This document shows, piece by piece, positions 53,477 through 64,000 of a DNA stretch of 64,000 nt. Positions within the stretch are counted from its first letter, which is position 1. Each line of letters begins with the position of its first letter. Below the pieces are notes generated by a model. It searched no databases and was not told the DNA's origin. It saw only the letters and a list, made by a program, of their open reading frames with translations. A program made the position numbers and the translations under genes. The stretch comes from Beijerinckiaceae bacterium (GTDB lineage: Bacteria; Pseudomonadota; Alphaproteobacteria; Rhizobiales; Beijerinckiaceae): positions 55,884-119,883 of the forward strand of contig CANGFT010000002.1 of assembly GCA_947453205.1 (NCBI GenBank), read 5' to 3'.

Positions 53477-53615
53477 TGCGCCACGGCGCATGCTGCGGAG
53501 GGGTAGCCGAATGGTCTCAGGCGCACAGCGCGCCTGCGGCGCGCGTCCCCTCCAGAAAATTCGCGTGCGCCACGGCGCATGCTGCGGAGGGGTGGCCGAG
53601 TGGTTGAAGGCGCAC
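53477..53615 (+). repeat. Direct repeat (45/50 nt, offset 89 bp) of the tRNA leader plus 5' half
   Basis: TGCGCCACGGCGCATGCTGCGGAGGGGT (28 nt identical) at 53477 and 53566, continuing with 5 mismatches. Confidence 0.85.
53497..53554 (+). ncRNA. Candidate tRNA-Ser-derived mini-tRNA-like element
   Basis: GGAGGGG...CCCCTCC-A acceptor stem, D-arm-like segment and one GC hairpin; no T arm, anticodon arm or CCA. Confidence 0.35.
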
Positions 53616-53675
53616 GCCTGGAAAGTGTGTATACGGGAAACCGTATCGCGGGTTCGAATCCCGCCCCCTCCGCCA
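53586..53675 (+). tRNA. tRNA-Ser (GGA)
   Basis: GGAGGGGTGGCCGAGTGG...CTGGAAA anticodon loop, long variable arm, GGTTCGAATCC and CCCCTCCGCCA. Confidence 0.97.
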
Positions 53676-54778: not shown

Positions 54779-56344
54779 TCAGGCTCGGCGCCTTGCGCGC
54801 GGACTGGTGTCTACTGTCGCGATGATTTCCCGCATAAGGCGCTCTATCAACGTCGCCCGCACGCCTGCATAGTCCGGGTCGTCCCAAAGGTTTTGTAACT
54901 CGCCGGGATCCTTGCGAAGATCATAAAGTTCCCCCCAGGCGATATCCTGATAAACCGTCAGCCTGTGCTCCTGCGTCTGCAAGGTCCGAACAACCGCAGG
55001 TTTGGAAAAATTCATGCGGCGTTGCGTATCTTCAAATTCAATCAAAAGCGCTTCGCGAGGCTGGGTGGAGCCATCGAGGTCGCTCAGGAGATTGCGGCCC
55101 TGAATGCCGAAATAGGGCTTGACGCCAGCGCGCGCAAGAATTGTGGGCGCAAGATCGGCGGTCGATGCGAGAATATCCGATTTGCCCGGGTTACGATCGG
55201 CGGGATCCGACCAGATGAAAGGCACATTGTTGATGGAGCGGCGCATGATCGCGCCCTTCAGCATCATGCTGCAATCGCCCAGATAGTCGCCATGGTCGGC
55301 GTTAAAGACGATGACGGTGTCTTCATAGCGGCCAATGGTCTTAAGTTTTTCAACGATGGCGCCGACGGCGTCGTCGATCATCGCGATCATTCCGCAACTG
55401 AGCGCCATGGCTTCGCGAATCTCCCGCTCGCTCGCCATGAATGCTTCCTGCGTCTGGTCAGCGCGCGCGCCTGCCTTCCATTCATCATACAGAAACTGCA
55501 TGGGCGAAATTGGGTTTTTGTGCGCTGTGAAATCAGGCGGCGCGCTGAACTGTTCAGGCTTGTACATATCCCAATATTTGCCAGGAGGCGTGAAGGGATG
55601 ATGCGGGTCAGGAAAGGAGACGAAGGTGAAAAACGGCTTGTCGTCATCTTTGGCGCCTTCGAGCCAGGCGAGCGTGCGGTCGCGGATATAAGCGGTTGGA
55701 TAGAATTCTTCCGGCACAGGCGTGCGCACGGCCTGAGGGCAGATATAGTCATGGGGCGACTGGTTCTGGCGGTCGCGCCAGAAATCCGCCTGGGATGAGG
55801 CCTTGCGAAGCCATTGCAAATAATGCCCGTTGCAGACGTCGCCGTGCCACGTCACCATTTCGACGTGCTCATAGCCGTAATAAGGCAGATTAAACTTGTA
55901 GTAGTCAGCGCCTTCATAACGCGAGGGATCTTCGTTGTCGTAATCGGCTTCGTCCTGGCGCCAGGCTTCCTTGATGGGGCCGAGCGAATCAGGATCGACG
56001 CGGGGCTGGGCGGGAATGCCTGTCATTGGCTGCACATGGCTTTTGCCGATGGCGGCGGTGCGGTAGCCCGATAGACGCAGCGCCTCAACGAAAGTGGATG
56101 CGTCATAAGATAGATCGCAGCCATTGTGGCGAAGCCCATGGGTCGAGGGATAACGTCCCGTCAAAAGTGTGGCGCGGTTTGGCATGCAGACCGGCGATGC
56201 GACATAAAAATTATCAAACTTGACGCCATTTGCGGCGATCGAGTCGATGTTGGGCGTCTTCAGCACGGGATGGCCGGAGCATCCCAGATAATCTGCGCGA
56301 TGCTGATCGGTGATGATGAAGAGAAAGTTCGGCTGTTTCGCCAT
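54779..56344 (-). CDS. Cys-type (formylglycine) sulfatase, no signal peptide
   Basis: QPNFLFIITDQHR, SPVCMPNRATLLTG (CxPxR), GKSH, SFPDPHHP, ADHGD and ELYDL..DPGE. Confidence 0.92.
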   Translation of the reverse strand: MAKQPNFLFIITDQHRADYLGCSGHPVLKTPNIDSIAANGVKFDNFYVASPVCMPNRATLLTGRYPSTHGLRHNGCDLSYDASTFVEALRLSGYRTAAIGKSHVQPMTGIPAQPRVDPDSLGPIKEAWRQDEADYDNEDPSRYEGADYYKFNLPYYGYEHVEMVTWHGDVCNGHYLQWLRKASSQADFWRDRQNQSPHDYICPQAVRTPVPEEFYPTAYIRDRTLAWLEGAKDDDKPFFTFVSFPDPHHPFTPPGKYWDMYKPEQFSAPPDFTAHKNPISPMQFLYDEWKAGARADQTQEAFMASEREIREAMALSCGMIAMIDDAVGAIVEKLKTIGRYEDTVIVFNADHGDYLGDCSMMLKGAIMRRSINNVPFIWSDPADRNPGKSDILASTADLAPTILARAGVKPYFGIQGRNLLSDLDGSTQPREALLIEFEDTQRRMNFSKPAVVRTLQTQEHRLTVYQDIAWGELYDLRKDPGELQNLWDDPDYAGVRATLIERLMREIIATVDTSPRARRRA

Positions 56345-56382
56345 GGTCAAATTCCAATCGAGTGACGCAACGGGTTCACGGA

Positions 56383-57363
56383 TCACTCCGCCTTGATTCC
56401 CGCAGATTTGATGACACGGCCCCAGCGTTCCCGCTCCTGGGCCACCCAGGCGATCGCATCCTGCTCGTCATGACGCGCCGTCGGCGTCTCCGCCATGACG
56501 TCAAACTTAGCCCGCACGTCGGCTTCGTCCAGGATGGGACCGATCTGAGCAGCCATGAAGTCGCGGATGGCCTTCGGTGTGGCGGCCGGCGCAAGCAGGA
56601 GATTGGAGAAGCGTGCTTCAAAACCTGTGATGCCGGCTTCCGTCGCGCTTGGGACGTCTGGCAGCGCGTCGATCCGCGCATTGGCGGAGACGGCGAGCGC
56701 GCGCAGCGCGCCTGATTGCACATGCGGCACGAGCGCGCCTGCAACGATGAAAGTGGCGTCTATCTGGCCGGAAAGCAGATCCTGCAAGGCGAGCGCCGCG
56801 CCGCGATAGGGCACATGCGCGGCCTGGATCGGACTGACCGATTTCAGATATTCCAGCGCCAGATGCCCCGGCGACCCGACGCCCGCCGAACCGAAGGTCA
56901 GAGGCCGCGTCTTGGAGAGCGCAACGAGTTCGGGCCAAGACTTCGCTTGAACGGATTTTGCGTTGACCGCGAGCATCAACAACACATCCTCGACGCGCGC
57001 GACGGGGATCAGGTCCTTTGCGGGATCGAAACCCTGCGATGCGTACATCCACGGATTGGTCGTCAAAACGGAATCGACGGTGTAAAGCCAGGTCGATCCA
57101 TCAGCCGGGGCGTGAGCGACATAGGCCGCGCCGATGTTTCCTCCAGCGCCCGCCTTGTTATCGACGATGATCGTCCGCCCGATCCGCGCCGACATCCTGG
57201 ATGCAAGCACGCGCGCGATGACGTCGGCAGGACCGCCCGGCGCCAAGGGCACCACGATGGAGATGGTCCCCTTGGGCAGCGGATTGTCGGCAAGTTGCGC
57301 GCGGCCAGCGCTTGACGACATGACTGCGGCTAAGCCGAGCAAGCCTGCGACGCATTTGAGCAT
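56383..57363 (-). CDS. Bug/TctC substrate-binding protein
   Basis: VVPLAPGGPADVIAR, DNKAGAGGNIG and HVPYRGAALA. Confidence 0.9.
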   Translation of the reverse strand: MLKCVAGLLGLAAVMSSSAGRAQLADNPLPKGTISIVVPLAPGGPADVIARVLASRMSARIGRTIIVDNKAGAGGNIGAAYVAHAPADGSTWLYTVDSVLTTNPWMYASQGFDPAKDLIPVARVEDVLLMLAVNAKSVQAKSWPELVALSKTRPLTFGSAGVGSPGHLALEYLKSVSPIQAAHVPYRGAALALQDLLSGQIDATFIVAGALVPHVQSGALRALAVSANARIDALPDVPSATEAGITGFEARFSNLLLAPAATPKAIRDFMAAQIGPILDEADVRAKFDVMAETPTARHDEQDAIAWVAQERERWGRVIKSAGIKAE

Positions 57364-57449: not shown

Positions 57450-58277
57450 TCAAACGCCCGCTTGCCAGCTCAAACGCTGGAGCAACAAATGGGCGAGCGC
57501 ATAGCCCGTCGTCGATGACGTCTTCGGGTTGGCGGGGGATGGGTGGCCATCGATGCGGATGGACAGGTCCGCGCAGGCGGATCTGACCGCGATCTCATGT
57601 TGGTTATGCGACACGCCGGGGTCTGCGATCAGGCGCACGCGCGTGGCGTCGAGACCCGCGCCCGCGAGCGCGATGGTGGCGGCCACGTTGGCGTTCTGGG
57701 GAAAGAGGCGCGCTGCGTCGCGGGCCGTTCCTTCGAAAAAGATCGCTTCTTTCTGAAGGTCGGCGAGCGCCACCAGTTCGCCGGCTTTCGTGCCGACCCA
57801 TGCGAGCGGCGGTTTGCGAGACGTATAGAGAACCTCGACAAGGCCCGAGAGCTTCGCCGCGGCGAGAATGTCGAGCCCGCCGATGGCGCCGGGCGAAATG
57901 ATGAGCGCGGCGCCCGAAGCACGCGCAGCCTCCTCAAGCCGGGCGCGCAGGGCGTCGTCGGACAGAGCCCCGACGGCGCTGACGATCAGATCGACGCCCG
58001 CCGCCAGCACCGATGGCCCGGCCTCCGCCAAGGCCTCATGGCCAGCCGCTTCCGCCACGACCTCCGGGCGCGCGGCGAGGAAGGCCTCAAGCGTCGTCTC
58101 GATCCTGACGTCCCGCGCGACGCTGCGGCTCAGGCGCGACGCCCATTGCGCAGCCTTGCCCGCGCTGGCGGGGCGCGCGAGACAGATCAGCGCCTCAAAG
58201 GGTGTGGCGATATTGCGCTCAAGAGCCTCGAAAGCCAGGGTGGCGACAGCGCCATGGCCGATCAGTCCCAGCCTCAC
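57450..58277 (-). CDS. L-aspartate dehydrogenase (NadX)-like protein
   Basis: LIGHGAV Rossmann fold, EAAGH, PGAIGGLD, YTSRKPP, FPQNANVAAT and NPKTS. Confidence 0.85.
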   Translation of the reverse strand: MRLGLIGHGAVATLAFEALERNIATPFEALICLARPASAGKAAQWASRLSRSVARDVRIETTLEAFLAARPEVVAEAAGHEALAEAGPSVLAAGVDLIVSAVGALSDDALRARLEEAARASGAALIISPGAIGGLDILAAAKLSGLVEVLYTSRKPPLAWVGTKAGELVALADLQKEAIFFEGTARDAARLFPQNANVAATIALAGAGLDATRVRLIADPGVSHNQHEIAVRSACADLSIRIDGHPSPANPKTSSTTGYALAHLLLQRLSWQAGV

Positions 58278-59962
58278 CTTGCGCCTCCGGCCGCGCCAGC
58301 AGGAGGACCGCCAAAGGCCGTCGCATAGGGCCCGATGGTCGTCATGTCGACGTCAAGCAGGCTGGGTCCGTCCTGCGCCAGGGCGCGATCAAAGGCGTCC
58401 GCGAAAGCGGCGATGTCGCTGACCCCCTCGTAACGCAAGCCGATGCTCGCGGCGACGAGGCTGAAATCCGGCGTCAACAGTTTGCTGTAGACGCGACGAC
58501 TTTGATATTGCGCGTCCTGAATGTTCTGGATGACGCCATAGGCCTGATCGTTCATGAGGACATAGACGATCTGGCATTGGTGCTCGACCGCGGTCGCAAG
58601 CTCGCCGATGTTCAGCTGCGCGCCGCCATCCCCCAGAAGCGCGACCGTCTTGACGCCCCGGACCGCAAAGGCCGCGCCGATGGCCATGGCTATGCCCTGC
58701 CCGATGCCGCCGCCCAGCGCGTGAACGCCAAGGTGCGGCGAGGCGAGGCGCACATAGCGATTGCCGAAGGTCGAATTGCCGACGGTGACGTCGCGCACCC
58801 AGGGCAGAGCTCCGGCATGGACGCGCGCGCTCAGATGCCGCGCCAGCGCCCCATAGGGCCCGAGCCCCTTTTCAAGATTGGCTTCGGCCTGACGCCGCCC
58901 GGCCGCGAAATCGGCGGCGAAGGACGCATCGGTTTCAAGGCGTGCAGGAAGCCGGGCAAGCAGACCCTCCAGCGCGAGGCGCGCGTCTCCATGAATGAAC
59001 ATGTCGACCGCGCAATTACGGCCGCCCTGGGAGGCGTCGGCGTCGATCTGGATGAGCGGGCGCGGGAACCGCATTTCGTTGTTGCGCGTCTCGTTGCCGC
59101 GCAGGCGCGAGCCGACGACGATCAGGAGGTCGGCGGCGTCATAAAGCGACTGCGTCTCCGGCGTCATGTTGTAGGCGCCGAGCGAATGGGGATGATCCTC
59201 CGGGACGACGGCGCGGCCATTGGCGCTCGTCACGGCGCAGAAGCCCCGCTCCACCAGTTCGGTGGCGGCGGCGCTGGCGGCGCGTGACCCGCCGCCGAGG
59301 AGGAGGATGGGACGACGCGCGGCCCTGACGAGGCGCGCGAGTTCGTCGAGCTGCGCCTCGTCAGGCGTCGCCGCCAGCTGCGCAGGCCGGGGAAAGACTC
59401 TCGGCGTCAAAACCTTGTGACGCTGAACGTCGATCGGGATTTCAAGGCTCACCGGGCCTGAAGGCGCCGACAGGGCGGCGGAGGCCGCGGCCTGCAAGGT
59501 GGGAAGGCAGCCGCGCCCCTCCCAGATGCGGAAATAGGCCTTGGAGACGCCCTTCAGCATCTCCGGCTGCTTTGGCACGTCGTGAATGGCGGCGCGGTCG
59601 CGGTCCATATAGATCGTGTCGAGTTGCGAGGTGATGTGCAGGACTGGAGAGCCCGCCGTCAGCGCCTCGACCTGCGATCCCGCCGCATTGCCCGCCGCCG
59701 TGCCCGTGCTTGTCACGACCACGCCGAGGCTGCGCGACACCCGCGCATAGGCGTCGGCCATGTTCATGGCTCCAGCTTCGCCGCGCGCGGGCACGAAGGT
59801 GATGCGGCCCTGACGGAAGATGGCGTCGAGGATCGGCATGTTGTGAATTGAAATGACGCCGAAGACATGGGTCACGCCGATTTCGGCGAGATAACGCGCG
59901 ACGGCGTCGCCGACCGCCTCCTCGGCAAGCGGCGCGGCGGCGACCAAAGTCATCTCACTCAT
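58274..59962 (-). CDS. Thiamine pyrophosphate-dependent enzyme
   Basis: FGVISIHNMPILD, ARGEAGAMNMADA, GGGIGQG and GDGG...MND..YGVI. Confidence 0.9.
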   Translation of the reverse strand: MSEMTLVAAAPLAEEAVGDAVARYLAEIGVTHVFGVISIHNMPILDAIFRQGRITFVPARGEAGAMNMADAYARVSRSLGVVVTSTGTAAGNAAGSQVEALTAGSPVLHITSQLDTIYMDRDRAAIHDVPKQPEMLKGVSKAYFRIWEGRGCLPTLQAAASAALSAPSGPVSLEIPIDVQRHKVLTPRVFPRPAQLAATPDEAQLDELARLVRAARRPILLLGGGSRAASAAATELVERGFCAVTSANGRAVVPEDHPHSLGAYNMTPETQSLYDAADLLIVVGSRLRGNETRNNEMRFPRPLIQIDADASQGGRNCAVDMFIHGDARLALEGLLARLPARLETDASFAADFAAGRRQAEANLEKGLGPYGALARHLSARVHAGALPWVRDVTVGNSTFGNRYVRLASPHLGVHALGGGIGQGIAMAIGAAFAVRGVKTVALLGDGGAQLNIGELATAVEHQCQIVYVLMNDQAYGVIQNIQDAQYQSRRVYSKLLTPDFSLVAASIGLRYEGVSDIAAFADAFDRALAQDGPSLLDVDMTTIGPYATAFGGPPAGAAGGAR

Positions 59963-59969
59963 GGCGACC

Positions 59970-60761
59970 TCATATGAACCTTGAAACGCCGCCCGAAATC
60001 TCAAGGGCGGCGCCTGTGACATAGGCCGAGGCGGGGGAGGCCAGGAAGACGATGGCGCGCGCCACCTCGTCCGGCTTGCCGAGACGGCCGAGCGGGATAT
60101 GTTTCGACTTCGCGAGTTCGGCCAGCCAGACGTCGCGGCTCTGCGACTTGTCCGCCCGCGCCTCGAACCTGCGCTCCCATTGGCCGGACTCGATGAGGCC
60201 AAGCAGGACGGAATTGACGCGGATCGTCGGCGCGAATTCAACCGACAGGGACTTCAGGAGATTCTGCACCCCGGCGCGCGCGGCGGAGGTGCAGACCATA
60301 TGCGCCTCGGGCTGCATGGCGAGGAGCGAATTGACCGCCAGAATGGAGGCCGCATCGCTTTGGGCGAGCAAAGGCTTGAAGGCGCGGATGGGCAGCACCT
60401 GGCTGAAGAACTTCAGGTCGAGCTCAGCGCGCCAATCCTCGTCCGATGTCGTCTGGAACGTCGAAACGCGCCCTTGCCCCGCATTGTTGACGAGCAGGTC
60501 AAGCCGCCCGCGCCAGGCCTCGACGGCGCCGGCGAAAGCGGCGACATCCTGCGACTTCGTCACGTCGCAGGCCCTCGCCAGCAGCCGTCCGGCGCCATAG
60601 CGTTCCGCAAAGACCGCAGCGACTTTCGACAGCCGGGCTTCGTCGCGGCCGCACAAGGCGACGTCGGCGCCTTCCTGCAGAAGAACCTCCACACAGGCTA
60701 GCCCGATGCCGGAGGTTCCGCCGGTCACGACGGCGACGCGTCCATTCAGCCCCAGATCCAT
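59970..60761 (-). CDS. SDR family oxidoreductase (atypical: M-x-x-T-S-A-A-R in place of YxxxK)
   Basis: TGGTSGIG, NNAG and HMVCTSAARAG. Confidence 0.88.
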   Translation of the reverse strand: MDLGLNGRVAVVTGGTSGIGLACVEVLLQEGADVALCGRDEARLSKVAAVFAERYGAGRLLARACDVTKSQDVAAFAGAVEAWRGRLDLLVNNAGQGRVSTFQTTSDEDWRAELDLKFFSQVLPIRAFKPLLAQSDAASILAVNSLLAMQPEAHMVCTSAARAGVQNLLKSLSVEFAPTIRVNSVLLGLIESGQWERRFEARADKSQSRDVWLAELAKSKHIPLGRLGKPDEVARAIVFLASPASAYVTGAALEISGGVSRFI

Positions 60762-60781
60762 TTCGCCCCCTCGCCCCGGAC

Positions 60782-61345
60782 TTACTTCTTGGGACGCTTG
60801 ATCTTCGCGAGTGGGTGATCGGGCGGATAGGTGGGGGTCTCAGGCTTGGTGGAGCCCACCATCACGCACATCAGCGCCTCCTCGCGGCCCTCGTTCACCA
60901 GCCCGCGGTAGACGCCGGCCGGCACCGAGATCAGGTCGCGCTCTTTCAGGACGGTCTCGACGAGTTCGCCCTTATGTTCGACCATGATGCGCACGCGCTC
61001 GCCGCGCAGGATGAAGAAGACCTCCTCCGCATCGGTGTGCAGATGCAGCGGGCCTTCGCAGCCCGCCGGAAGCACCATGGTGGAGAAGGTGAAATGCTCC
61101 GCCGGAACGGCGTTTGGATCCGCCGCGACGCCGGTGGCGCCGGTGCCCACATAGCGCATCTGGGCGCGCTTGTATTTTGGATCGTAGTCAGCCTGGAACT
61201 TCAGCGCATCCCAGTCGAGCGTGCGCGTCTCATAGCGCGCGACCCGCGACTCCACCCATTGGGCCAGCGTCTTGCCGTCGGGAATCCTGACGTCGTCGGG
61301 AAAGGTCTCCTTCAGATCCGCCTGCAGATCCGCCTGCTCACTCAT
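60782..61345 (-). CDS. Cupin domain protein
   Basis: YKRAQMRYVGTG, GPLHLH.DAEEVFF and SVPAGVYRG. Confidence 0.85.
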   Translation of the reverse strand: MSEQADLQADLKETFPDDVRIPDGKTLAQWVESRVARYETRTLDWDALKFQADYDPKYKRAQMRYVGTGATGVAADPNAVPAEHFTFSTMVLPAGCEGPLHLHTDAEEVFFILRGERVRIMVEHKGELVETVLKERDLISVPAGVYRGLVNEGREEALMCVMVGSTKPETPTYPPDHPLAKIKRPKK

Positions 61346-61453
61346 GGCTCACCTCCGTGCTGCCGCGCCGCTCCTCGCGAGATCCGGGATCTTGTCGCCC
61401 CAGGACCGAAATCGAACTTTACAGACGATAAACGACAACGTAGGCTGTTGCAA

Positions 61454-61482
61454 ATATGAACTACCGTTTCATATGTGAAACG
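61454..61482. promoter_or_regulatory. Two overlapping palindromes between divergent operons (candidate operator)
   Basis: ATATGAA-N7-TTCATAT (61454-61474) and CGTTTCA-TATG-TGAAACG (61465-61482). Confidence 0.55.
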
Positions 61483-61521
61483 CAAAGTTCCGGTCCCAAG
61501 GGGCTGGCGGAGGCTCAGTCG

Positions 61522-61746
61522 ATGACGAAAGAGACCCAATATCTCGTCGTTCACCAGACACGCGAACATGAACCGACGGATTACGAAAACCTCCTTGGCG
61601 ATGGGCTTGAGCAGGCTTTCGCGCGCGGCTTGCAGGAGCCGGCGGAGATCGTCGCGGCGCTGAATGCGGCCTGTGTTCCCTCGCCGGGCGGCAAGCCCTG
61701 GACTGAGGATTTGTTCTTCTCCGAATTGAAGCGCCTTGGCGCCTGA
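61522..61746 (+). CDS. Small recombinase-like helix-turn-helix protein
   Basis: YLVVHQTR..EPTDYENLLGDGLEQAF...WTEDLF.SELKRLG. Confidence 0.7.
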   Translation: MTKETQYLVVHQTREHEPTDYENLLGDGLEQAFARGLQEPAEIVAALNAACVPSPGGKPWTEDLFFSELKRLGA

Positions 61747-61759
61747 GCGGGAGTTGGCC

Positions 61760-62797
61760 ATGACCGAGATCTCGAAAGACGCGATCGAAACCCTGCTCCA
61801 GAACGGCCTGCGCAACGTCTGGTACATGCTCTGCCCCTCCCATTTCGTCGCGGAGAAGCCGGTGTCCTTGCGCCGGTGCGGCTACAAGATGGTTTTGTGG
61901 CGCGATCTTGCGGGCGTCGTCCATGCCCTCGAAGATCATTGCCCCCATCGCGGCGCGCCCCTGTCCCTGGGCATCCTGATGGATGACCGGATCGCCTGCG
62001 GCTATCATGGCGTGCAGGTGGACGCGAACGGCGTCGCGGTGTCGGTCCCCGGGAGCCCCGGCTGCGCGCTGGAAGGGCGCAAGGCCACGAGGGCTTTTCC
62101 GACGAAGGAGATCGCCGGCGCGATCTTCGCCTATATTGGCGATCGGCTGCATCCCGAGCCGCCTGAACTCGACCTGCCGGAGGAACTGACGAGCCCTGAG
62201 TTCAGCCGCTTCCTCTGCTATGCCGAATGGAATGGCGACTATCGCTACGTCATCGACAATGTGATGGACCCGATGCATGGAACCTTCCTGCACAAGCAGT
62301 CCCATTCCATGTCATTCGGCGACACCATCGCGGAATTTCAGGTGCGCGACACGCCCATCGGCTTCGTCTTTGAAAAAGTCGGACAGCGGAACGTCAACTT
62401 CGACTGGACGGAATATGCCGAGACCGGCGTCGCCTGGCTTCGCCTTGAGATTCCCTATCCCAAGACCGGCGGCCCCGGCGGCAATTTCCACATCGTGGGC
62501 ATGTGCACGCCCATCTCGCCGAACAAGACCGCCATCGCCTTCTGGCGTTGCCGCAAAGTTTCGGGCTGGCGCCGCGACGCCTGGCGCTTCCTCTACAAAA
62601 ACCGGCTCGAAGCGCGCCACTGGCATGTGCTCGAACAGGACCGCGTGCTGATCGAGCGGTTCGAGCCCGACGCCAACCAGCGCGAGATGCTCTACCAGCA
62701 CGACATCGGCCTCGTGCGGATGCGCAAGATCATGCGCGCCAAGGCCGAGGCGCAACTGCAGGCGCTCGCCCGGGCGGGATCGGGACGCGCCGCCTGA
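61760..62797 (+). CDS. Rieske aromatic ring-hydroxylating oxygenase alpha subunit
   Basis: CPHRGAPL...CGYHG and DNVMDPMHGTFLH. Confidence 0.9.
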   Translation: MTEISKDAIETLLQNGLRNVWYMLCPSHFVAEKPVSLRRCGYKMVLWRDLAGVVHALEDHCPHRGAPLSLGILMDDRIACGYHGVQVDANGVAVSVPGSPGCALEGRKATRAFPTKEIAGAIFAYIGDRLHPEPPELDLPEELTSPEFSRFLCYAEWNGDYRYVIDNVMDPMHGTFLHKQSHSMSFGDTIAEFQVRDTPIGFVFEKVGQRNVNFDWTEYAETGVAWLRLEIPYPKTGGPGGNFHIVGMCTPISPNKTAIAFWRCRKVSGWRRDAWRFLYKNRLEARHWHVLEQDRVLIERFEPDANQREMLYQHDIGLVRMRKIMRAKAEAQLQALARAGSGRAA

Positions 62798-62820
62798 TCG
62801 GCTTGCGCCGGAGCTGCGAC

Positions 62821-63600
62821 ATGACGAAACGAAGGCTTGAGTTCCGCGGGGTCACAAAACGCTTCGCCTCACGAAAGGGCGATGCGGTGACGGCCGTCAC
62901 CGCTCTCGATTTTCATATCGAAGATGGCGAAGTGGTCTCCATCATCGGTCCGTCCGGCTGCGGCAAGAGCACGCTGTTGAACATGGGCTCGGGCCTCGAC
63001 CCCGCCAGCGAAGGCGAGGTCTTCGTGGACGGCGAACTCGTCACAAAGCCCAACGCCCATGTCGCCTTCATGCTGCAGAAGGATCTCCTGCTGCCCTGGC
63101 GCACGATCCGCGAAAATGTCGAGTTCGGCCTCGAAGTCCTGCACCGGCCTGCGCGGGAACGAGGCGAGACCGCGCTCGAACTCCTGCGCAAATGCCGCTT
63201 GAGCGATTTCGTCGACCATTATCCGCATCAGCTTTCCGGCGGCATGCGCCAGAGGGCGGCGCTGGCGCGGACGCTCGCCGTGGATCCCGCCGTGCTCCTG
63301 ATGGACGAGCCTTTCTCGGCCCTCGACGCGCAGACCAAGATGGTGCTCCAGCAGGACCTTGGCCGCACGCTGGCCGAAACCGGCAAGACCGCGCTCTTCG
63401 TCACCCACGACCTCGTGGAGGCGATCGCGCTGTCGCATCGCGTGCTCGTCATGAGCCAGCGGCCGGGGCGGATCATCCGCGAACTCATCATCGACATTCC
63501 GGACATGGGCAATCCGATGGCCCGGCGCAAACACCAGAAAGTCGGCGGCTATGTCGCCGAACTGATGGAACTTCTGCACATTGAGGAAGCCGTCGCCTGA
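62821..63600 (+). CDS. NitT/TauT family ABC ATP-binding protein
   Basis: GPSGCGKST, LLPWRT, LSGGMRQR, DEPFSALD and FVTHDL.EA. Confidence 0.92.
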   Translation: MTKRRLEFRGVTKRFASRKGDAVTAVTALDFHIEDGEVVSIIGPSGCGKSTLLNMGSGLDPASEGEVFVDGELVTKPNAHVAFMLQKDLLLPWRTIRENVEFGLEVLHRPARERGETALELLRKCRLSDFVDHYPHQLSGGMRQRAALARTLAVDPAVLLMDEPFSALDAQTKMVLQQDLGRTLAETGKTALFVTHDLVEAIALSHRVLVMSQRPGRIIRELIIDIPDMGNPMARRKHQKVGGYVAELMELLHIEEAVA

Positions 63601-63626
63601 AGGCGCGGCATTGGAGGGGGTCTGAT

Positions 63627-64000
63627 ATGAAGCTCGTTCGCACTCGCCTGCTGCCCGCGCTTGCGGCCATTGGTCTATCGCTTGCGTCCCTCGCGGCGCC
63701 CGCCAGCGCCCAGGATGTGACCTATCTCCTGCCCGCGCCCGGCTCCCTGCCGGCCTTCGCGCCCTGGATGGTCGCCCAGCAGCGCGGCTACTTCAAAAGC
63801 GAAGGCCTCAACGTCACCTTTCAGGTGGCGCGCGGCGGGGTCGACGTCGCCAAGCAGGTCGGCGCCGGCAACGCAGTGATCGGCGGCGCCATCGGCGACA
63901 CGCCGATCCTCGTGCGCGCCAATGGCGTCCCCGTGAAATCCGTCGCGGTGCTGGGCGGGCGCTCCCTGACCCAGCTCGTCCTCAACAAGGACAAGGGCGT
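63627..64000 (+). CDS. NitT/TauT (NMT1/THI5-like) ABC substrate-binding protein, truncated by window end
   Basis: Own translation: MKLVRTRLLPALAAIG...APWMVAQQRGYFKSEGLNVTF..ARGGVDVAKQVGAGN. Confidence 0.8.
   Translation, partial: MKLVRTRLLPALAAIGLSLASLAAPASAQDVTYLLPAPGSLPAFAPWMVAQQRGYFKSEGLNVTFQVARGGVDVAKQVGAGNAVIGGAIGDTPILVRANGVPVKSVAVLGGRSLTQLVLNKDKG

Follow-up and report, generated by a model that had tools for sequence, protein, structure and literature searches.

Does an enzyme of the NadX/aspartate dehydrogenase (AspDH) family that is encoded among catabolic-type genes serve the breakdown of a substrate, the synthesis of nicotinamide adenine dinucleotide (NAD), or both? The question is raised by the right end of a 64,000-nt stretch of DNA, hereafter the window, of a Beijerinckiaceae bacterium (GCA_947453205.1, contig CANGFT010000002.1, positions 55,884-119,883 of the forward strand). 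In an original prediction on this DNA, the NadX-like enzyme was taken to be repurposed in a degradation route for a (hetero)aromatic compound. On balance, we lean toward a reading in which the locus is a co-conserved catabolic module for an aromatic or N-heteroaromatic acid, and its genuine AspDH most likely also carries de novo NAD synthesis.

The entire module comprises 13 genes in 10.4 kb (window positions 57450 to about 67828), arranged as two divergent operons. From 5' to 3', the minus operon encodes a cupin, a short-chain dehydrogenase/reductase (SDR1), a thiamine diphosphate (ThDP) enzyme and AspDH. The plus operon encodes an HTH_62 protein, a Rieske oxygenase, the ATPase, binding protein and permease of an ATP-binding cassette (ABC) system, a second SDR (SDR2), an alpha/beta-hydrolase and an IclR regulator. 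The window covers the left two-thirds of the module, and the plus operon runs about 3.8 kb past its end on the same contig; genes in that part were taken from locus L002 on this contig, where locus position plus 57116 gives window position.

A probable substitute for NadB within a catabolic-type operon

The AspDH gene (57450..58277, minus strand) closes the minus operon, and its GTG start overlaps the stop of the ThDP enzyme gene by 4 nt. Its product carries the Asp_DH_C (PF01958, 7.8e-31) and NAD_binding_3 (PF03447, 4.3e-15) domains and scores 241 bits with NF009828, the model of an aspartate dehydrogenase subfamily, above the cut-off of 177. In an HMMER alignment with 1H2H and 2DC1, the second His of 'SHNQHEIAV' falls on the catalytic His193 of TM1643, and the motifs GAIGGLD, FEG..A, NVAAT and NPKTS are common to the window protein and the AspDH of A. 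fulgidus and T. maritima. The enzyme thus resembles NadX of T. maritima (TM1643) and A. fulgidus (1J5P/1H2H, 2DC1) in fold family, catalytic His and surrounding motifs, and also in its inferred role, which would be to supply iminoaspartate for NadA where NadB is absent. In contrast, it matches these proteins at only about 100-110 bits, its score with TIGR03855 stays below that model's cut-off, and its gene sits in a catabolic-type operon rather than beside nadA or nadC. Judged by these sequence features, it is most simply a genuine aspartate/iminoaspartate enzyme and not a repurposed one.

Both nadA (contig C14) and nadC (contig C21) were found over their cut-offs on contigs other than that of the cluster, in line with the original remark that neither is adjacent. 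No nadB was detected in this genome, either by searching its contigs with a nadB hidden Markov model (HMM) or by tblastn. The best HMM match, on contig C22, was discarded as SdhA by its signature FPTRSHTVAAQGG, and the second, which lies inside the window (C2:83504-85054, 127 bits), is an AprA-like flavoprotein and an unlikely aspartate oxidase. Queries with NadB of one same-genus and two same-order genomes retrieved only paralogues of 23-36% identity by tblastn (29-36% with the same-genus query). Gene order is nadA-nadB-TPR gene in the relative G003 and nadA-TPR gene in the genome studied here (C14:48972-51785), which indicates that nadB was deleted and not missed by assembly.

A survey of 16 genomes of the genus revealed nadA in all of them. 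The 11 with a cluster-type AspDH (52-57% identity) are all devoid of nadB, while the two that have nadB (G003 and G005) are devoid of the cluster AspDH. Moreover, the AspDH gene lies inside the cluster in 5/5 relatives whose loci were read. Of 33 cluster-bearing genomes from other genera, 18 have kept nadB; the 15 without it include 7/7 other alphaproteobacterial carriers tested and two complete Neopusillimonas genomes. Since nadA and nadC are kept, nadB is deleted and the genome encodes a single AspDH homologue, AspDH is the only visible source of iminoaspartate, and the gene complement expected of a NadX role (nadA and nadC without nadB) is what was found. Collectively, these data suggest that AspDH has probably taken over the job of NadB in this lineage, carrying de novo NAD synthesis. 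The locus would then offer a natural example of a catabolic-cluster enzyme that seems to have taken NadB's place in an essential pathway of cofactor synthesis.

A discrete module co-conserved across Proteobacteria

To place the cluster among its relatives, one genome per species was scanned. Relatives of the Rieske oxygenase turned up in at least 589 genome stretches; the best 80 loci were taken with 10-kb flanks, and co-occurrence was scored by tblastn with all window proteins in the 54 loci whose 10-kb flanks are full. These 80 loci belong to Alpha-, Beta- and Gammaproteobacteria. In the same three classes, the Rieske protein has relatives of 65-92% identity, all generically named. IclR is present in 53 of the 54 full-flank loci, and an HTH_62 gene adjoins the Rieske gene in 52. 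SDR1 was found in 47, the ThDP enzyme and the hydrolase in 45 each, a reductase in 42, AspDH and the cupin in 36 each, and the second SDR in 30. SDR1 and the ThDP enzyme occur together in 43 loci and form the most constant pair of the family. Every locus with AspDH also has the hydrolase (36/36), and cupin, hydrolase and AspDH are absent as a set in Delftia and Comamonas. These counts rule out that the genes associate here by accident of one genome, and the co-conserved catabolic-type cluster that had been predicted is borne out. In Comamonadaceae, a binding protein of the tripartite tricarboxylate transporter (TTT) type stands in for the ABC system, a replacement that likewise suggests a carboxylate as substrate.

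Same-genus synteny begins exactly at AspDH and stops in IclR (about 67760). These limits, together with the lack of conservation of the neighboring TctC/Bug and sulfatase genes, define a discrete 10.4-kb module that occurs in differing contexts across genomes. All-against-all clustering of open reading frames (ORFs) from the 80 loci, which is noisy owing to shadow ORFs, returned a porin as recurrent extra neighbor (26 loci), besides two rarer companions at 7 loci each, a major facilitator superfamily transporter and a luciferase-like monooxygenase; genes of the kynurenine pathway or for molybdenum hydroxylases were absent from its output.

In Pseudomonas jinjuensis (locus L075) and in most beta- and gammaproteobacterial loci, the cluster forms a single long array, to which an aldehyde dehydrogenase, a two-domain VOC extradiol dioxygenase, a 105-aa protein, RidA and an FNR/2Fe-2S (PDR-type) reductase are added. 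Over its full length, RidA of L075 aligns with PDB entry 2IG8, 'PA3499' (E = 2e-82, about nine-tenths of residues identical). This match and the gene order indicate that the family corresponds to the PA3498-PA3514 region of P. aeruginosa, where expression of PA3504, PA3510 and PA3514 is reported to fall together in a glpR mutant. The core of this type (HTH_62, Rieske, SDR, PRK07064 ThDP enzyme and IclR; AspDH, cupin and hydrolase) is complete within the 10.4 kb described here. With PA3498-PA3514 of PAO1, its families being read in L075, the window copy shares the Rieske protein, HTH_62, the cupin, two SDRs, the PRK07064 enzyme, AspDH, the hydrolase, IclR and a NitT/TauT ABC system. It differs in its arrangement as two divergent operons, in residing in a genome without nadB, and in having neither extradiol dioxygenase, aldehyde dehydrogenase, RidA, 105-aa protein nor PDR-type reductase. 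The stretch is, then, a trimmed alphaproteobacterial variant of a widespread cluster without assigned substrate. Hundreds of Proteobacteria from soil, fresh water and clinical sources carry the cluster, P. aeruginosa among them; naming the substrate would fill a recurrent annotation blank and might give an old orphan pathway its genes.

In the fuller loci, the 105-aa and RidA genes flank the HTH_62-Rieske pair (related loci L003-L082; L075:9434-9751 and L075:11011-11445). They also co-vary, as all 28 RidA loci have the 105-aa protein and four further loci have the latter alone. The 105-aa protein has no Pfam match and is 72-93% identical between bacterial classes.

Repurposing weighed against a role in NAD synthesis

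According to the original prediction, AspDH would have been repurposed for another amino or imino acid of (hetero)aromatic degradation, for example an aminomuconate-like enamine, with no part in NAD synthesis. We consider this unlikely, although a precedent exists: human ASPDH does not act on L-aspartate but reduces 2-aminomuconate with NAD(P)H in tryptophan catabolism, and its catalytic His has moved two residues upstream, a RidA-family deaminase being the alternative solution in other lineages (bioRxiv 10.64898/2026.06.05.730449). The likeness would lie in the recruitment of the AspDH family to aromatic, tryptophan-derived breakdown, acting on an unstable amino/imino-dicarboxylate. Repurposing would further suit the score under the NadX equivalog cut-off and the way in which fuller clusters place three matching partners, an extradiol dioxygenase, an aldehyde dehydrogenase and a RidA-family protein, beside AspDH. 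It would also suit the retention of nadB by 18/33 cluster-bearing genomes, where AspDH must have a cluster-specific job. In contrast to human ASPDH, however, the window protein keeps its catalytic His at the prokaryotic position and not two residues upstream. In addition, this genome and 10 others of the genus have nadA without nadB and no other comparable AspDH homologue, the latter being shown for the genome studied here. An enzyme that passes the NF009828 cut-off, holds the prokaryotic catalytic His and is the sole AspDH homologue of a nadB-less genome speaks for a genuine AspDH, and the claim of repurposing is not supported in its original form.

The opposite possibility, that the protein simply complements nadB, had been named as a refutation of repurposing and holds at least in part, given nadA and nadC without nadB. 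It does not dispose of the cluster: because nadB persists in those 18 genomes, AspDH is a true member, and an ancestral one, of the catabolic cluster. PA3505, which we take to be the AspDH of the canonical P. aeruginosa cluster, is reportedly an active L-aspartate dehydrogenase, which would also count against repurposing; P. aeruginosa is generally taken to have nadB. In a transposon-sequencing study of this species, PA3505 nevertheless scored as essential on three out of four host-like media, its label there giving a pathway category only (PMC9732424). Under the reading that we favor, the nadB-less genus offers a clean genetic handle on a bacterial cluster AspDH whose human homologue has just been reassigned to tryptophan catabolism.

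Operon layout and a conserved promoter-operator region

Gene calls and Pfam/NCBIfam matches confirmed the eight genes that had been named in the window, all with significant matches, and the packing of both operons is as tight as described, with intergenic gaps of -4 to 28 nt. The operons diverge from a 176-nt intergenic region that holds a palindrome at 61447-61481 with 14-nt arms, GTTGCAAATATGAA-N7-TTCATATGTGAAAC. Upstream of it on the plus strand lie a -35 element (TTTACA, 61418-61423), a 17-nt spacer and a -10 element (TAGGCT, 61441-61446) that the palindrome directly abuts. Alignment of nine orthologous divergent loci revealed that the -35 (TTTACA/TTGACA), the 17-nt spacer, the -10 (TAGxCT) and the palindrome are all kept, the latter with the consensus GTTGCAAATAYGAAAT-N-GTTTCRTAT-TGAAAC directly after the -10. 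Conservation of the palindrome and of the -35/-10 pair in nine loci far exceeds chance. A generic promoter scan made no call at 61418-61481, which we nonetheless regard, from this conservation, as the promoter of the plus operon with an overlapping operator.

The palindrome is the presumed operator of IclR, encoded by the last gene of the plus operon (66998-67828, plus strand, beyond the window; IclR_C 1.7e-38). With an IclR gene in the cluster and a palindrome at the promoter, the locus has the makings of an IclR-regulated operon, in which binding is predicted. The first plus-operon gene (61522..61746) encodes the 74-aa HTH_62 ('recombinase-like HTH') protein (PF20552, 2.2e-28) and ends 13 nt before the Rieske gene. 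The HTH gene listed in the original prediction is present; its product is probably an accessory protein associated with the oxygenase, and the regulator of the cluster is IclR.

Enzymes of the module and a proposed route

The Rieske non-haem-iron oxygenase (61760..62797, plus strand; PF00355 and PF19112, VanA_C) is an alpha-only protein of the VanA/phthalate family. Its Rieske ligands C61, H63, C80 and H83 and its mononuclear-iron residues D170, H173 and H178 are invariant in 20 orthologues, and its best PDB relative is DdmC, at 78 bits. It is comparable to DdmC (dicamba demethylase), CarAa (carbazole) and VanAB as an alpha-only subunit with VanA_C that is paired, in fuller clusters, with an FNR and 2Fe-2S reductase. 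It differs from these systems in that an HTH_62 micro-gene precedes its gene and the cluster is devoid of a reductase. The 187-aa monocupin (60782..61345, minus strand; Cupin_2, 1e-11), first in the minus operon, has H101, H103, D105, E107, E108, Y146, R147 and N151 invariant in 32 orthologues. Its predicted metal site would consist of His101, His103 and Glu107 and be of the 2-His-1-carboxylate type, because Arg147 replaces the usual His of motif 2, the fourth ligand. Ni-quercetinase QueD (34% over the barrel core) was among its Foldseek matches.

The ThDP enzyme (58274..59962, minus strand) belongs to the PRK07064 family (NF005470, 729 bits against a cut-off of 495), contains the N, M and C TPP_enzyme domains and shows the GDG...ND ThDP motif. 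Its best PDB relatives (BbmA and acetolactate synthases) reach 159 bits only, and AruI is among its nearest named relatives (NF005712, 257 bits; cut-off 500). The AruI/KauB pair (5-guanidino-2-oxopentanoate decarboxylase and aldehyde dehydrogenase) offers a similar logic, in which an amino acid yields a 2-oxo acid, ThDP-dependent decarboxylation gives the aldehyde and a dehydrogenase the acid; the window differs in that its ThDP enzyme is of the unnamed PRK07064 family and an aldehyde dehydrogenase is absent. SDR1 (59970..60761, minus strand) is of the PRK07062 family (adh_short_C2, 2.8e-45; NF005468, 393 bits against a cut-off of 266).

On the plus strand, the ABC ATPase (62821..63600; PF00005 ABC_tran, 1.5e-30) has SaoA, TauB and NtrCD as its best NCBIfam matches, all under their equivalog cut-offs. 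It is followed by an NMT1/THI5-like periplasmic binding protein (PF09084) that is cut by the window end (63627..64000, full gene to 64613) and, beyond the window, by the permease (about 64642-65436; PF00528), SDR2 (about 65444-66202) and the alpha/beta-hydrolase (about 66198-66995). An NMT1/SsuA-like binding protein, a single permease and a TauB/NtrCD-like ATPase are the components of a NitT/TauT importer. A PDB search with the Rieske, cupin, AspDH, ThDP, binding protein, hydrolase and extradiol dioxygenase sequences retrieved no close characterized relative and no described pathway, consistently with the original statement that no substrate is assigned.

We propose that IclR would act at the palindrome as a repressor and keep the plus operon silent unless the substrate, or a product of it, is present, and that the NitT/TauT-type ABC system would bring in an aromatic or N-heteroaromatic carboxylate. 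The alpha-only Rieske enzyme would then oxygenate this substrate with electrons delivered via a reductase encoded elsewhere in the genome. The SDRs, an Fe-type monocupin and the alpha/beta-hydrolase would open and split the ring system, an SDR and the ThDP enzyme would oxidize and then decarboxylate a 2-hydroxy or 2-oxo-acid side product, and AspDH would handle an imino/amino-dicarboxylate end product. The aromatic-type logic derives from the extradiol dioxygenase, aldehyde dehydrogenase, RidA and PDR-type reductase of the fuller versions, with which the (hetero)aromatic-type substrate originally suggested would be compatible.

Several observations weigh against this proposal. As to the enzyme, AspDH scores 174 bits with TIGR03855, the NAD-biosynthetic NadX equivalog, under its cut-off of 206.55, and its gene is placed last in an operon of catabolic-type genes. 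AspDH is also the least conserved and fastest-evolving protein of the cluster: its same-genus orthologues are 52-57% identical, whereas most neighbors reach 69-85%, and its dN/dS, the ratio of nonsynonymous to synonymous substitution rates, is about 0.25-0.33. So low a conservation is unexpected for an essential NAD enzyme. Absence of nadB rests on draft assemblies, with synteny favoring a true deletion, and the survey of NAD genes covered the de novo route only. As to the route, the genome contains no orthologue of the extradiol dioxygenase (best 28%, confirmed by whole-genome search) or of the aldehyde dehydrogenase (best 30%), and RidA and the 105-aa protein gave no match reaching the listing threshold. 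There is no reductase gene in the window cluster either. With no extradiol dioxygenase, a scheme of Rieske oxygenation followed by ring cleavage rests on the cupin, whose function is predicted only; Foldseek with its AlphaFold model (predicted local distance difference test score of 72) yielded generic cupins and no functional call. Furthermore, G001, G002 and G009 have the extradiol dioxygenase without a Rieske orthologue, and such a mosaic of modules implies that the pathway is not a simple line from the Rieske oxygenase to extradiol cleavage. Finally, no paper describing the pathway or assigning a substrate to the cluster or to any of its genes was found in the literature on the locus, the gene families and kynurenate degradation.

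Distant homologues of the reductase are encoded on contigs C3 (44%) and C21 (40%), and the former could be the partner of the window's oxygenase. Around the C3 homologue (C3:33651-39951), with no Rieske gene beside it, lie two TctC/Bug genes, a luciferase-like monooxygenase and an NMT1-like binding protein.

More doubtful than repurposing is an assignment of the cluster family to kynurenate breakdown by the classical 'quinoline pathway'. The Rieske protein and the reductase would form the 7,8-hydroxylase, an SDR would be the diol dehydrogenase, and the extradiol dioxygenase would cleave 7,8-dihydroxykynurenate. The ThDP enzyme and aldehyde dehydrogenase would shorten the 2-oxo-acid side chain, after which cupin and hydrolase would open the dihydroxypicolinate ring to 2-oxoglutarate and iminoaspartate, the latter being taken by AspDH or RidA. 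Ring opening of 5-(2-carboxyethyl)-4,6-dihydroxypicolinate would indeed give these two products, so that the scheme accounts for an aspartate/iminoaspartate enzyme in the cluster. By chemical reasoning only, the enzymes of the fuller cluster fit the reaction list of the 1960s step for step, and no genes for the quinoline pathway were found in the literature. On the other hand, the literature yielded no confirmation or experimental link, no kynurenine-pathway genes are conserved beside the cluster (the porin being the sole extra recurrent neighbor), and the extradiol dioxygenase occurs in some relatives that have no Rieske gene. As written, the route cannot run here, where the extradiol dioxygenase is missing genome-wide, as it is in at least nine other genomes: G004, G006, G011, G012, G014 and four other alphaproteobacterial carriers are likewise devoid of it, whereas G001, G002, G008, G009 and G013 encode it.

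Kynurenate-type acids are thus a lead only. A bolder and rather improbable extension would make the PA3498-PA3514-type family the missing genetic basis by which bacteria degrade a tryptophan-derived N-heteroaromatic or aminoaromatic acid of this type, with an AspDH that captures the unstable imino/enamino-dicarboxylate of ring opening and, in this alphaproteobacterial genus, was later captured in turn for NAD synthesis, allowing deletion of nadB. If true, this would be the bacterial counterpart of human ASPDH acting as 2-aminomuconate reductase.

Against three relatives, all genes of this copy have dN/dS values of 0.09-0.34 and every one is intact; purifying selection acts on all of them, the Rieske and transporter genes included, and the trimmed variant looks functional rather than decaying. 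Least probable of all, then, is that the catabolic function is decaying in the genus and the cluster is kept only because its minus operon supplies AspDH for NAD. The extradiol dioxygenase, aldehyde dehydrogenase, RidA, 105-aa protein and reductase are indeed lost here, cluster gene content differs from genome to genome within the genus, and G001, G002, G009 and G012 have a cluster-type AspDH with no Rieske orthologue found, G002 retaining an intact cupin-SDR-ThDP-AspDH operon. Yet the remaining genes are under the constraint just described, promoter and operator are conserved, and the variant without extradiol dioxygenase recurs across at least 10 genomes, including three of 99-100% completeness, which makes a stable design more likely than recent decay.

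Genomic surroundings

The module had been placed inside a probable island. A tRNA-Ser gene lies at 53586-53675, G+C falls to 0.60-0.63 over 54-58 kb, and the sequence downstream of the same tRNA-Ser differs in three same-genus genomes (L103, L104 and L106); this locus marks an integration hot spot. Neither an att-type direct repeat of the tRNA-Ser 3' end nor a point where synteny resumes in the flanks of relatives was found. The island is therefore plausible on its tRNA-Ser side and in its variable flanks, and has no defined far end. In G006, the DNA downstream of tRNA-Ser matches short repeated contigs of the genome studied here, likely insertion sequences.

Within the stretch of G+C 0.60-0.63, a sulfatase (535 aa) and a TctC/Bug binding protein are encoded at 54779-57363 with a 4-nt overlap. 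Both were considered as cluster members and rejected, as synteny stops at AspDH, none of the full-flank loci contains a sulfatase orthologue of more than 40% identity, and the TctC/Bug gene matches only paralogues of 28-40% identity. At the other end, past IclR (L002:10878-13344, equivalent to about 67990-70460 of the window), a minus-strand 305-aa ORF without Pfam match is accompanied by a second Rieske oxygenase with a LigXa_C domain and by another TctC-like gene. These genes may be further cargo of the same variable region.

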